From the IMG/VR virus record IMGVR_UViG_2547132278_000006: DNA of 24,771 nucleotides. One strand, written 5' to 3'. A model generated the notes under the pieces. It was not told where the DNA came from and did no database searches. It saw nothing but the letters and a program-made list of their open reading frames with translations. Shown here piece after piece: positions 327 through 24,771 of this stretch (the stretch's first letter is position 1; every line of letters begins with the position of its first letter). Origin of the DNA: a virus (taxonomy: Duplodnaviria; Heunggongvirae; Uroviricota; Caudoviricetes). The position numbers and the translations under genes are program-made.

Positions 327-467
327 GTTAAAACGCATCTCCAGACTATCAATATGTCTCTGTGTCTCCAGTTCATAGCGGGTAATTGCGATTTCAATAA
401 TTTTATGACCAGCAAGGAAATCCAGTCCCGTAGACTCGATATCGATGCCTGCAACAATCGTTGTCAT
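327..467 (-). pseudogene. DEDD-family 3'-5' exonuclease (DnaQ/oligoribonuclease-like), N-terminal 47 codons only, truncated at the IS junction
   Basis: Hand translation from ATG at 467: MTTIVAGIDIESTGLDFLAGHKIIEIAITRYELETQRHIDSLEMRFN, then the frame enters the IS at 326 and stops after 2 codons. Exo I motif (D-I-E-S-T-G-L) and GHKIIEIA match DnaQ/Orn N-termini. Strong SD (AAGGAG) 5 nt upstream. Under 60 aa, so absent from the ORF track. Confidence 0.5.
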
Positions 468-476
468 CAGAACTCC

Positions 477-896
477 TTACAACTTCTTAGCGCCCTTAAG
501 TAGTGCGCTACGTACAAATTGAGCCGCTTTTTTCAAAGTTTCTTCACTGGTTTCACAGACAATCGGATCTTTCCACTTACCTGACACAGTGTTGAGAATA
601 TTGATTTGGTTGCTATCCAGACAAACAGAGATATAAAGCACCGTGCCACCAGCCAGCATCAAATGCATAGGAAACAGAGGCTTTTTACTGCCTTCACTGA
701 ACTGAGACATGGCGATGTTAATGGCTTCACCCACTTGTGTACCAACAAGCCCCTGCGCAGTTTCGAATATGGCACGAATAGCCAGACGAGCCTCTCGATC
801 GCTCATAAGCGACCGGGAATGTTCGTCCGCTACACGAATCAAAGCCTCTGTTGTTTTCCGATCCAGTTCATCTTCAAGCAACAGTTCACTAAACAT
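477..896 (-). CDS. hypothetical protein (139 aa)
   Basis: Intact minus-strand ORF in the co-oriented gene array; no motif recognised. Confidence 0.55.
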   Translation of the reverse strand: MFSELLLEDELDRKTTEALIRVADEHSRSLMSDREARLAIRAIFETAQGLVGTQVGEAINIAMSQFSEGSKKPLFPMHLMLAGGTVLYISVCLDSNQINILNTVSGKWKDPIVCETSEETLKKAAQFVRSALLKGAKKL

Positions 897-18525: not shown

Positions 18526-19599
18526 TTACTCTTCTACTGACTCGGTGGGGTTGTCTTTTGCTCTTCGGTCGTCGATTGCCTGCAAAGCCGCAATGATTTC
18601 AGCCAGTGGCTTCTCCCGATACATCTCGACGATCTGCGATTTGGTGTATTTCTTGTCACCAATTTCAACTCGCCCGCTGGCGTTCTTTGGCAGGTATCCT
18701 TCTTCCAGCATGTACTCGACGAGCGATTCGATAACGTCGAGGCCACGAGTAGGATCGAAGTAGAATTTCCAGGTGCATTTGCCATACGGTGGTGCAACTT
18801 TGTTTTTGATGCATTCTGCGCCTACGTCCTGGCCGATCTTCTCTTTACCATCCTTCATCACCGATGCACCAAGACGGATACGTACAGAAGCGTAGAACTT
18901 CGGTGAATCTCCACCTGGCGACGTAGTAGGGTCGCCAAACATTACACCGATTTTTGTGCGAACCTGATTCAAGAAGATGATGCAGGCGTTGTATTTGCGT
19001 GCCCACAAAGCCAGAGTAGGGAAGTTCGCACTTGTCGCACGAGCCAGTGCCGTATTGTCGTTCATGTTTAGCTGATCTTTGTCTTTGGCAGTGCCTTCAG
19101 CCATCTTTTCGAACTTCTCGGCTTTGGAGTTCGGAACCATAGACGCAAGTGAGTCAGCCACGATACAGATAGGTGCTGATTCAGGGATAAGCTCTTCATC
19201 ACGTACCAATTTAAGTATTGTGCCGATCAACTCTACAGAGTCTTCGAAGGTGTCAGGCTGCTTGTATACCCACTGACCGTCATCCTCATCTGCGTTCAGG
19301 CCATTGGCTACAGCCAGGCCAACGTCAAAACTGTTTTCATGATCGAGGAATACCGCCAGACCATCTTGTTTTTGAGCGGAGATCATCGCTGCTGTTGCAA
19401 GGAACGTTTTCCCTGCACTTGGAGGACCGAATACTTCGACGATACGACCACATGGGAAGCCGCCATCGTAACGACCAGAAATAGCTTTGTTTAACGGTGG
19501 AAAGCCTGTATCAATCCAATGAGTTACTTTCTGAATTTCGTCGTTGCTACCGATTTTCTTTTTCAGAGCAAGTGCCAGTGCGGATTTTCCTTTTGCCAT
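18526..19599 (-). CDS. recA: RecA-family recombinase
   Basis: Walker A GRIVEVFGPPSAGKTFLA; FLNQVRTKIGVMFGDPTTSPGGDSPKFYASVRIRLG is near-identical in pattern to recalled E. coli RecA ([36 protein letters not shown]). Confidence 0.9.
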   Translation of the reverse strand: MAKGKSALALALKKKIGSNDEIQKVTHWIDTGFPPLNKAISGRYDGGFPCGRIVEVFGPPSAGKTFLATAAMISAQKQDGLAVFLDHENSFDVGLAVANGLNADEDDGQWVYKQPDTFEDSVELIGTILKLVRDEELIPESAPICIVADSLASMVPNSKAEKFEKMAEGTAKDKDQLNMNDNTALARATSANFPTLALWARKYNACIIFLNQVRTKIGVMFGDPTTSPGGDSPKFYASVRIRLGASVMKDGKEKIGQDVGAECIKNKVAPPYGKCTWKFYFDPTRGLDVIESLVEYMLEEGYLPKNASGRVEIGDKKYTKSQIVEMYREKPLAEIIAALQAIDDRRAKDNPTESVEE

Positions 19600-21901: not shown

Positions 21902-22018
21902 GTGTTTCTCCTTGTTGTGATTTGGCCGATGGCGCTATGCGCGTTGGGCTTTCGTTCATTCGTGGCTCTTTCGAGCTGTTAAATGATAGATCAGTACTTA
22001 CTTATTATCTATCAAAAA

Positions 22019-22450
22019 TCAACGGGGAGTAATAAAGCGTTCAGAGCCTAATCGCTCTAATTCAACGATGGCCATCTTTGACGCCTGAACGATCATGTCT
22101 CGGCGATGCGAAAAGGCGGCGACAGCATGTTTGTATATGTCTGCGATGTGCCGTGCTTCATCCAACTTCTGCCTTTTAGACAGATACTGTGGGTTTGTTT
22201 TAACCTTAGCGTCCAGTACAGATTCGTTGAACTTAATGCCGTTCATACTCAAGTTCTTACGCTCTGTGTCGTATAGCTTTGCTTCAACAGCTTCAAGGTT
22301 AAGTTTTGCCTCTGCGACACTTCTTTCTGCATGAGCGAGTTTTGAGCCATACTCCATTAAAAGGCGGGGTTGTCTACGCCAGACTTCCTCCAGATTGTCT
22401 CGGTCAAACTCGAGATCAGACATTATTTTCTCGTAAATATCGGTGATCAT
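22019..22450 (-). CDS. hypothetical protein, possibly UvsY-like recombination mediator
   Basis: 143 aa (T4 UvsY is 137 aa); LLMEYGSKLA...AEAKLNLEAVEAKLYD loosely parallels recalled UvsY LYSKWL...AQKKVALKARLDYY; sits next to the gp32-like gene in a RecA/Mre11/Rad50 context. Functional call is weak. Confidence 0.45.
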   Translation of the reverse strand: MITDIYEKIMSDLEFDRDNLEEVWRRQPRLLMEYGSKLAHAERSVAEAKLNLEAVEAKLYDTERKNLSMNGIKFNESVLDAKVKTNPQYLSKRQKLDEARHIADIYKHAVAAFSHRRDMIVQASKMAIVELERLGSERFITPR

Positions 22451-22482
22451 GTGCTTTCCTTTTTACTTATCATCTTATATTG

Positions 22483-22520
22483 ATTATATCATTGTGATGA
22501 TAAGGCAAGGAGTTCGAGGA
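22483..22520 (-). promoter_or_regulatory. candidate promoter with extended -10 (TGATATAAT) upstream of the UvsY-like gene
   Basis: Minus strand TTGCCT-N14-TATAAT with TG at -15/-14; -10 hexamer at 22483-22488, about 30 nt upstream of the ATG at 22450. Confidence 0.4.
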
Positions 22521-22544
22521 TAGGGGATATGAGGGGATAAGAGA

Positions 22545-22569
22545 AAACATGGCCATAGAGGCCATGTTT
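22545..22569 (-). terminator. stem-loop downstream of the polymerase gene
   Basis: AAACATGGCC-ATAGA-GGCCATGTTT, a 10-bp perfect stem 7 nt after the polymerase stop; the 3' tract is only moderately T-rich. Confidence 0.4.
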
Positions 22570-22575
22570 ATGGGA

Positions 22576-24485
22576 TCACGACTTAATAGTTTCTGCTACG
22601 TCGGCTAATATCGCTTCTAGTCGTTCTCCCTCTTCAGGTCTGAAGTAAAGAATGTTGGGGTTAAACCCGTAAAAGACAGTAACGTCAAGGTCTGGAAGAT
22701 ACTCCTTCCTGCCGACCAAATCGGATGGCTTGTTTTTGTTGTTAAACAATGCCGTTGCCCGGCTGCCACACGTCAGCACATAGGTCGGACGCACCAGATT
22801 GATCTCTTCACGTATAAAGTCGGTGAACTGGCCGATCTCGTCTTTGGTGTAGTCTTTTTCTTTGTCTTTAACCTTCTTGCAAACGCCTGTGACATAGAGA
22901 TCGCCCATGCGTAAATCTCCAGCCGTCAATAGCTTGGCCTTAAAGTCGTCGTATCCGTTCTCCATAAAGTAACCGGTTCGAGCATCATTGCCGTTCGCAT
23001 TGTCCAGAATGATCATGATTTTCGGCTTAATACCAATGCTGGGGCGGATTAGTTCATCACCTAAGCCCATTTCAGCCGCCATCCGCGTCATGAGTACGTT
23101 AATTTCAGCCGAACGTTTGGGGTTCATCTCAAACGGACGTGAGGCTTTAACTGCGTCTATGACAAGGTTTCCCATCAATTCAGCCTGGTCGCGTAGGCGC
23201 TCTGGATCAGTTGCTGGCAGACTGCCTGGCTCGATGGATGCAAACGCCCCTACTTTTTGCAGCGATTCGCGCACTCGACTATTACAGGCACGTTTCTCGA
23301 CAGCTTCTTCGAATTGCGCCAGTGACTCGAATTTGCCGCCAACTTTTTCTCGCGCTCTCATGATGGCTTGGCAGCCATTCTCAGAACACCCCTTCACAGC
23401 AGAGAAGGGCGCATACAGCACCTGGCTGCCATCTTCAAGCGTGCGGATCTCGATTCGGTTAGATGACACGTTAACGTCTGGTGGCAATACGCGAATGCCA
23501 TAGGTCAGCGCATCTTTAACCAGCCCCTGGTGTTTATCTTCGCCAAGAATAGTGAGAGCAGCAGCGAAAAACTCTGCGGGATAATGAGTTTTCAACCACA
23601 TAGATTGATAACTGATTAAGGAGTAAGCAACAGAGTGTGATTTGTTGAACTGGTAGGCACCATTCTTTTCGAATGCGGTCCAGATCTCCTTCGCTTTCAT
23701 CTCTGATAGCCCTGGATGTGACGCTGTAACGCGTACTGCGTTTATAGGTAGTTTTGCGCCGTACTCAAGTGCCTCTTCGACAGTTTTCAGAGTTCCGTCT
23801 TCGCATTTAAAATGTTCCGCACGGTGAATGCGCTGTGTAGTGCCATCTTCCAGCTCAACGTCTATCCAGCCAGCTTGAGCCTGAACGATGAACTTCTCGC
23901 CCATGCTCTTCATTTTTTCCATGTCTTTTTTGCCGATCGCTTTACGAACGCCGTCAGCTTCAGCCATTGTGAAGCCAGCAAGCAATCGAGTCGCGTTCAT
24001 CGTCTGTTCCTGATAGAGAATCACGCCATTTGTTTCTGCGGTAAGTTCATCAAGAACGGGGTGTAATGATTCCGGCGTCATAAAGCCTTTGGCTACAGAA
24101 ACATAGTCATCCAACATGCCTGACTGAATTGGCCCCGGCCGGAAGAGCGCAGTCGTAGCAACAACCGTTTTAAAGCTCATTGGCTCAATTCCACCACCTA
24201 AATCTTTAAGCAGCTTGCGCATTGGGCCTGATTCAAGCTGGAAAACACCTTGAGTGTACCCAGCAGCAAAACCATCCAGCACCTTGCGATCTTCAAGAGA
24301 AATGGCATCAAGATTGATATCTTCACCTGTGTTCTCTTTTATGTAGCGTTTTGCACTATCGAGCAAATCGAGAGTTGCCAGGCCAAGCACGTCCAGCTTA
24401 ATTAGGCCCATAGCCTCGCAGTAACGCTTGTCAAATGCGATACAACGCGCGTCACCACGGCGCTCAACCGGTGTACGTTCTGTCA
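22576..24485 (-). CDS. dnaE: DnaE-type (Pol III alpha-like, family C) DNA polymerase, 5'-truncated at the IS junction; C-terminal uracil-DNA-glycosylase-family-4-like domain
   Basis: IAFDKRYCEAMGLIKLDVLGL, GVFQLESGPM, ALFRPGPIQSGM, GVILYQEQ and FNKSHSVAYSLISYQSMWLKTHYPAEFFAAALT match the E. coli DnaE palm/fingers from about residue 530 onward; the first ~500 residues are missing. The ORF-track 'start' at 24513 lies inside the IS terminal repeat (IS end at 24486), so the first 9 codons are IS-derived. Confidence 0.75.

Positions 24486-24771
<286 letters not shown>

Follow-up and report, generated by a model that had tools for sequence, protein, structure and literature searches.

The window considered here is a 24,771-nucleotide stretch of viral DNA (IMG/VR record IMGVR_UViG_2547132278_000006), which carries on its minus strand the 3′ portion of a gene that is annotated as dnaE and encodes a C-family DNA polymerase whose last domain resembles uracil-DNA glycosylases (UDGs) belonging to family 4. 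Positions 22000-24485 share 99% identity with many E. coli plasmids of ~105-115 kb and with SSU5-type Escherichia phages (83% with Salmonella phage SSU5 itself), and by these identities the stretch is assigned to an SSU5-like phage-plasmid of E. coli. A sequence-only reading had described a DnaE-type polymerase here, with a family-4 UDG-like domain at its C terminus in place of the usual OB and tau-binding region. The open reading frame (ORF) that it named, 22576..24513(-), 645 aa, exists as described, but it is incomplete: the reading overlooked that the gene is cut by IS100kyp, an insertion sequence (IS) of the IS21 family. The features of the locus, several of which were placed by hidden Markov model (HMM) alignment, are as follows.

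22576..24485, minus strand: dnaE 3′ remnant, residues ~538-1172 of 1172, with 99% identity to the intact dnaE of ~110 kb E. coli plasmids (e.g., NZ_CP023851.1)
22576..22578, minus strand: dnaE stop codon
22579..23118, minus strand: family-4 UDG-like domain, ORF aa 466-645
22654..22662, minus strand: degenerate motif B, NPN for HP(A/S), by HMM alignment
22876..22896, minus strand: YVTGVCK, equivalent of (V/F)ITNVVKC by HMM alignment, with Gly for Asn (N80 of the T. thermophilus enzyme) and no Fe-S Cys after the Lys
22993..23007, minus strand: degenerate motif A, LDNAN for GE(A/G)PG, by HMM alignment to 4zbx
23164..23199, minus strand: conserved linker motif RLRDQAELMGNL, core QAELM at 23173..23187
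23230..23499, minus strand: HhH/β-binding domain, ORF aa 339-428 (PF14579, E=6.6e-17), the last part homologous to cellular DnaE
23701..23874, minus strand: family-specific insertion in the fingers, from alignment of the fused protein with concatenated split pieces
23875..24375, minus strand: Pol III α fingers domain, ORF aa 47-213 (PF17657, E=9.4e-45)
24484..24513, minus strand: artificial ORF start of 10 codons, in the IS end or across its junction, as judged from the translation and the junction position
24486..24771, strand not assigned: end of IS100kyp, with 99% identity to IS100kyp istB in many records
24552..24737, minus strand: ORF for the C terminus of IstB, within the IS100kyp end

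The interruption is sharply defined. Nucleotide homology to intact dnaE stops at 24485, tblastn covers only polymerase residues 535-1172, and the IS100kyp terminus TGTCAATGACGG starts at 24486, so that the junction is 24485/24486; it was found in no record of PLSDB or of the RefSeq complete E. coli genomes. The intact gene of relatives is 3519 nt long and encodes 1172 aa (L001, NZ_CP023851.1). Because IS100kyp interrupts the gene, the window lacks most of the palm/thumb polymerase core, with the catalytic Asp residues, as well as the PHP domain; the intact orthologue has both (TIGR00594, E=2.1e-189, above its cut-off). Without these parts the interrupted copy cannot make an active polymerase.

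The intact 1172-aa protein runs in the order PHP domain, polymerase core, fingers, HhH/β-binding domain, short conserved helical linker and UDG-like domain. Homology to E. coli Pol III α stops at residue 895, where the GAFD motif ends the HhH/β-binding domain, and the alignments to NCBIfam DnaE models end at approximately residue 955 of 1172. No OB or C-terminal (tau-binding) domain family matched the polymerase among the Pfam and NCBIfam models, and the sequence beyond a linker of ~35 residues is all predicted to fold as a UDG. The UDG-like domain thus stands where cellular DnaE has the OB fold and the tau-binding domain, as the sequence-only reading had proposed; the bounds that it gave (22576-23150, ORF 455..645, equivalent to residues ~982-1172 of the intact protein) are here narrowed to 22579..23118. 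An OB fold or a canonical DnaE C terminus was considered for this region and rejected for the lack of matching OB or C-terminal models, the end of homology at 895 and the UDG fold itself.

Recognition of that fold depended on the use of relatives. Searched singly, the C-terminal 215 aa matched the NCBIfam model TIGR00758 ("UDG family 4") with E=1.2e-8, at 34.9 bits far under the curated cut-off of 125, an archaeal type-4 UDG model with E=4.9e-6, and PF03167 with E~1e-3, its 19.7 bits being under the cut-off of 24.3 bits. The best four single-sequence matches to PDB entries (phmmer) were all family-4 UDGs, at weak E values of 0.06-0.25. Such searches are too weak to decide alone, and a profile of relatives was needed. 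Word-indexed homologue searches gave no full-length relative, the first of them returning 7 close fragments only; the diversity of relatives came from an exhaustive search of 1.84 billion representatives, in which 141 clusters carried the UDG-like domain. From these relatives a profile of 43 diverse members was built, and residues were counted over 92 relatives thinned to <80% identity. The profile matched the S. tokodaii UDG 4zbx with E=2.5e-21 over residues 2-188 of 194, followed by the UDGs of T. maritima (1vk2, 2.7e-20) and T. thermophilus (UDGa, 1ui0, 1.6e-16) and by UdgX (~1e-13), and PF03167 was matched by 42 of the 43 relatives (best 1.3e-14). An AlphaFold2 model of the domain, with the 43-member alignment as input, reached a predicted local distance difference test (pLDDT) score of 94 and a predicted template modelling (pTM) score of 0.90, and its best Foldseek matches among PDB entries were exclusively family-4 UDGs or UdgX, with probability 1.00. 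The domain therefore descends from a family-4 (Fe-S type) UDG and keeps the α/β UDG fold, in agreement with the fold assigned to it beforehand by eye; structure prediction yielded neither an OB fold nor a DnaE C-terminal domain.

While the fold is kept, the catalytic motifs are not. HMM alignment paired the segments of the polymerase domain with those of family-4 UDGs as follows.

KIMIILDNANGNDARTGYF of the polymerase domain with IMFVGEAPGENEDKEGRPFVG of family-4 UDG
YVTGVCK of the polymerase domain with FITNVVKC of family-4 UDG
RPTYVLTCGSRA of the polymerase domain with MPKIIVTLGRHS of family-4 UDG
GFNPNILYFRP of the polymerase domain with TYHPAAALYNP of family-4 UDG

All four pairings had been drawn by eye in the sequence-only reading, and each was reproduced, together with the degeneration of both catalytic signatures that it had noted (GE[A/G]PG to LDNAN and HPA to NPN). 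On the numbering of T. thermophilus (Tth) UDGa, the substitutions in the alignment are E41 to D, G42 to N, E47 to D, F54 to M, N80 to G and H155 to N. The cost of comparable changes is known for the Tth enzyme, in which N80 is the uracil-reading Asn: k2/Km is ~2500-fold lower in H155S, ~900-fold lower in E41Q and ~40-fold lower in N80A (PMC5387724). Across the 92 relatives the motif-B His position is occupied by N (60), S (15) or T (13), with H in a single sequence; the N80 position holds G, A, S or T in 87 and Asn in none; motif A has the consensus x-D-x-P-x, with Asp at the Glu position in 85 and Pro in 71; and the stacking Phe (F54 position) shows no conservation. Because these losses are shared across the relatives, the disappearance of the two residues key to uracil excision is, from the alignment, old and family-wide and not a decay peculiar to this copy. 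Of the Fe-S ligands, the CxxC and both later positions are absent from the domain in this window, while 38 of the 92 relatives keep the CxxC, a conserved His ~8 residues beyond it and a Cys that occupies a family-4 Fe-S ligand position, a distribution that suggests stepwise loss of the Fe-S cluster after the fusion. Since the His, the uracil-reading Asn and, in this lineage, the Fe-S cysteines have gone, the domain most likely does not excise uracil.

Two orthologous DnaE proteins with 64% identity over their whole length share 61% identity in the UDG-like domain and 59% in the PHP domain; the former domain thus appears to be under purifying selection, its conservation being close to that of the latter. 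Y110, E140, P146 and G153 are invariant in the family, and K116, K119, T112, G171 and P189 are nearly so. A model of the last 390 residues, comprising the HhH and UDG-like domains, gave a pTM of 0.78 with a linker pLDDT of 85-91, values which suggest that the UDG-like domain is held in a fixed, docked arrangement and not loosely tethered. The linker has the consensus R-x2-D-Q-x-E-L-[ML]-P-G-L (in the 92 relatives, R9 in 88, Q13 in 85, L16 in 74 and M/L/I17 in 89), and its QAELM, 17 residues past the GAF motif, is similar in pattern and in its position after the HhH domain to the internal β-clamp motif of E. coli Pol III α, 920-QADMF-924. QAELM is accordingly listed as a candidate for either an internal β-clamp-binding motif or an inter-domain helix. 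As a firm clamp-binding site, QxELM was downgraded to this candidate status because both predicted models show the motif as a confident helix.

In many relatives the polymerase is divided between two cistrons, one for an N-piece of 787-790 aa and one for a C-piece of 386-389 aa, the latter taking in the end of the fingers (FNKSHS) together with the HhH domain, linker and UDG-like domain. The 91 non-redundant family members include 27 C-pieces and 36 full-length proteins. Alignment shows the fused form to be colinear with N-piece plus C-piece, the split point falling on the codon boundary at 23748, within the fingers insertion and ~30 residues upstream of the FNKSH motif; in cyanobacterial DnaE, it is at the FNKSH motif that an intein splits the protein. 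In two loci (L004, 2558-6161; L005, 2547-6170) the cistrons are separated by a gap of 70-84 nt with double stops, a hairpin and a ribosome-binding site, and in a third (L002, 2918-7170) a gene for a 231-aa HNH/NUMOD4 homing endonuclease lies between them. The possibility that the homologues of 385-392 aa are artefacts of gene calling was discarded in view of their own conserved start (mostly MK-I/V) and of the double stops, hairpin and ribosome-binding site in the gap. The split relatives may make a two-subunit C-family polymerase. Two further arrangements were seen: in P0017 the N terminus of an HNH/NUMOD4 endonuclease is in frame with RESLQKVGAFASIEPGS and the UDG-like domain, and in P0024 a C-piece from which both the UDG-like domain and the next ORF are deleted runs into the gp32-like single-stranded DNA-binding protein (SSB). 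As each comes from one assembly contig, they may be either genuine variants or artefacts of assembly.

The architecture itself has been published. A DnaE variant with the order PHP-Pol3-(HhH)2-UDG, in which the OB and C-terminal domains are replaced by an archaeal-type UDG domain (PF03167), was described from plasmids of Yersinia pestis and Salmonella (S. enterica) (Timinskas et al., 2014; NAR 42:1393, PMC3919608). The polymerase considered here belongs to the same protein family and has the same architecture, since the intact orthologue shows that domain order; the copy in the window differs in being additionally disrupted by an IS. The treatment by Timinskas et al. (2014) consists of one sentence and a figure panel, and the passages concerned are silent on the lost catalytic residues, the Fe-S remnants, the linker motif and the split genes. 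The UDG-like domain has 94% identity to the copies on Salmonella plasmids and on a 101-kb plasmid of Y. pestis. A total of 941 PLSDB plasmids (from Klebsiella, Escherichia, Acinetobacter, Enterobacter, Yersinia and Salmonella) carry it, and NCBI annotation already calls C-terminal pieces "uracil-DNA glycosylase". Direct searches found no literature treating SSU5, DnaE and UDG together. Being both published and widespread, the architecture is not a discovery; the comparison motif by motif and the survey of the family supply further detail but no feature of a new kind.

Comparable domains are found on other replicative polymerases. N4-like PolA carries a family-4 UDG domain without catalytic residues that has been proposed to be a processivity module (PMC10201439, 2023). 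It shares with the DnaE fusion a family-4 UDG fold joined to a phage replicative polymerase, unconserved catalytic residues and a predicted fixed docking, but the polymerase is of family A and not C, the UDG domain is N-terminal and not C-terminal, and the fusion is independent. For the UDG-like domains of SPO1 and T5, an analogy with vaccinia D4-A20 led to the proposal that they are intrinsic processivity factors (PMC3201878). Both SP15-like PolA and the holoenzyme of mpox have a UDG module that touches the 5′ template strand, ahead of the active site of the polymerase (bioRxiv 10.1101/2025.03.26.645540). The sequence-only reading had taken the UDG-like domains fused to some phage polymerases, its "SPO1 DNA polymerase-related" group, to be catalytically inactive. 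This holds for N4-like PolA, but SPO1- and SP15-like proteins keep the catalytic residues and the SP15-like one has been shown to be active (PMC10201439; 10.1101/2025.03.26.645540). In the SP15-, YerA41- and phiLo-like (and SPO1-like) UDG-PolA proteins motifs A and B are kept and deoxyuridine is excised, whereas the DnaE domain has lost the His and the Asn (Missoury et al., 2025; 10.1101/2025.03.26.645540; PDB 9qhs). Poxvirus D4/E4 in the E9-A20-D4 (F8-A22-E4) holoenzyme differs more widely, being a UDG of family-1 type, a separate subunit attached via A20, catalytically competent and partnered with a family-B polymerase. Free-standing family-4 UDGs (Tth UDGa 1UI0, T. maritima 1L9G, S. tokodaii 4ZBX) and UdgX share with the DnaE domain its fold and topology, the N-terminal helix, the order of the strands and the length of the motif-B loop; the DnaE domain differs from them in the replacement of Gly-Glu in motif A, of the His in motif B, of the uracil-reading Asn and of the 4Fe-4S ligands, and in being part of a larger protein.

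With the ancestry and the losses established, the domain is probably, though with considerable room for doubt, a non-excising, UDG-derived module that handles DNA or the template in place of the OB domain. Docked on the polymerase, such a non-catalytic nucleic-acid-handling module would keep hold of DNA or guide it, and the DNA concerned would probably be the template strand in front of the active site. In cellular DnaE this falls to the OB domain, and the proposed position agrees with that of the UDG modules in the family-A replicases of phages and the family-B replicases of poxviruses. The polymerase itself would work outside the host clamp-loader complex, a mode of action which the absence of a tau-binding domain fits. 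The identity of the element, the domain order, the fold, the motif losses, the conservation and the IS disruption were demonstrated in this analysis; loss of activity, DNA binding and the position on the template strand are what we infer. Several observations weigh against this reading. The domain is not basic, with a net charge of -3 and a pI of 5.2 (family median -2, with pI >7 in 41%), and an acidic-to-neutral charge tempers a simple DNA-clamp reading. Moreover, the pocket remains constrained among the 92 relatives, not only by the Asp at E41 (85/92) and the Pro of motif A (71/92) but also by an acidic residue at E47 (87/92), by small residues at the N80 position and by N, S or T in place of the His, and so constrained a pocket could still bind a ligand. 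Finally, the family-2 enzyme MUG works with an Asn in motif B, and Asn at that position is no proof of inactivity.

The charge speaks for a domain that serves mainly in protein-protein docking or as a structural element, has no direct role with DNA, and contacts a partner that might be the primase/helicase of the element, its gp32-like SSB, the host clamp or the N-terminal piece of the polymerase. This alternative, unlikely on balance, gains further from the many conserved acidic residues (D74, D/E80, D108, E140, D/E168 and D180), from the tight packing against the preceding conserved helix that the model suggests, and from the split relatives, in which the domain resides on a separate C-terminal subunit that needs to assemble with the N-terminal piece. 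However, basic residues are conserved on the UDG DNA-binding face (K116 in all 92 relatives, K119 in 89, K/R158 in 80 and K163 in 86), the motif-B loop is close in length and sequence to that of S. tokodaii UDG (NPNILYFRP against HPAAALYNP), and each characterised polymerase-associated UDG module contacts DNA.

The constrained pocket raises instead the question of whether a DNA glycosylase activity, weak or re-specialised, persists in the domain for uracil or another base. Such an enzyme would scan the template ahead of the polymerase and make abasic sites, as the active UDG of SP15-like PolA does. The near-invariant acidic residue of motif A with its Pro, the acidic equivalent of E47 and the limitation of pocket positions to particular residue classes all speak for this, as do the Asn found in motif B of MUG-type glycosylases (MUG motifs NPSGLS and GINPG), the CxxC and Cys that 38 of the 92 relatives keep as in Fe-S UDGs, and the existence of active UDG-PolA fusions. 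Yet the His is gone in 91 of the 92 relatives, and the H155S change alone costs Tth UDGa ~2500-fold; none of them has the uracil-reading Asn; conservation is also lacking for the stacking Phe; and even close relatives differ (N, T or G) at the position preceding the motif-A Pro, a catalytic one in families 1 and 2. Retention of glycosylase activity is for these reasons considered rather improbable. That the UDG likeness is due to chance, the region being a divergent OB or DnaE C-terminal domain, would find comfort only in the sub-threshold single-sequence Pfam score (19.7 against 24.3 bits), is refuted by the profile matches and the Foldseek results, and can be set aside as having virtually no likelihood.

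Downstream of dnaE, at lower coordinates and on the same strand, lies a module of replication and recombination genes, encoding a 143-aa ORF, the gp32-like SSB, a 5′-3′ exonuclease, a RecA-like protein and SbcCD-like proteins; a Rep3 initiator gene in the same module is on the strand opposite to dnaE. The 143-aa ORF (22019-22450, minus strand) follows dnaE directly, a position kept in relatives, where it has 143-146 aa (L002, L004, L005), and it had no family match in Pfam. The RecA-like gene (18526-19599) is 1074 nt long, while its counterpart in phage PhiR41_1 is annotated as 2340 nt (L003, 40799-43138), which suggests that the PhiR41_1 copy carries an intein or another insertion. SSU5-like phage-plasmids are frequently carried by clinical Enterobacteriaceae, which lends some practical interest to their replication enzymes.

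A more specific form of the non-excising, DNA-handling role may be considered, namely that the domain reads or guides the template strand, either through a pocket that reads ahead for pyrimidine or uracil or as a substitute for the OB domain. Framed this narrowly, the proposal is a doubtful one. If it were true, independent recruitment of a UDG fold at template entry would have occurred in three polymerase families, in A (phage UDG-PolA), in B (poxvirus) and, as the third, in C, and a large part of the clade would be a two-subunit split polymerase with the UDG-like domain on the small subunit. The same template contact, if shown for DnaE, would be a sign that viral replicases share a general principle of design.

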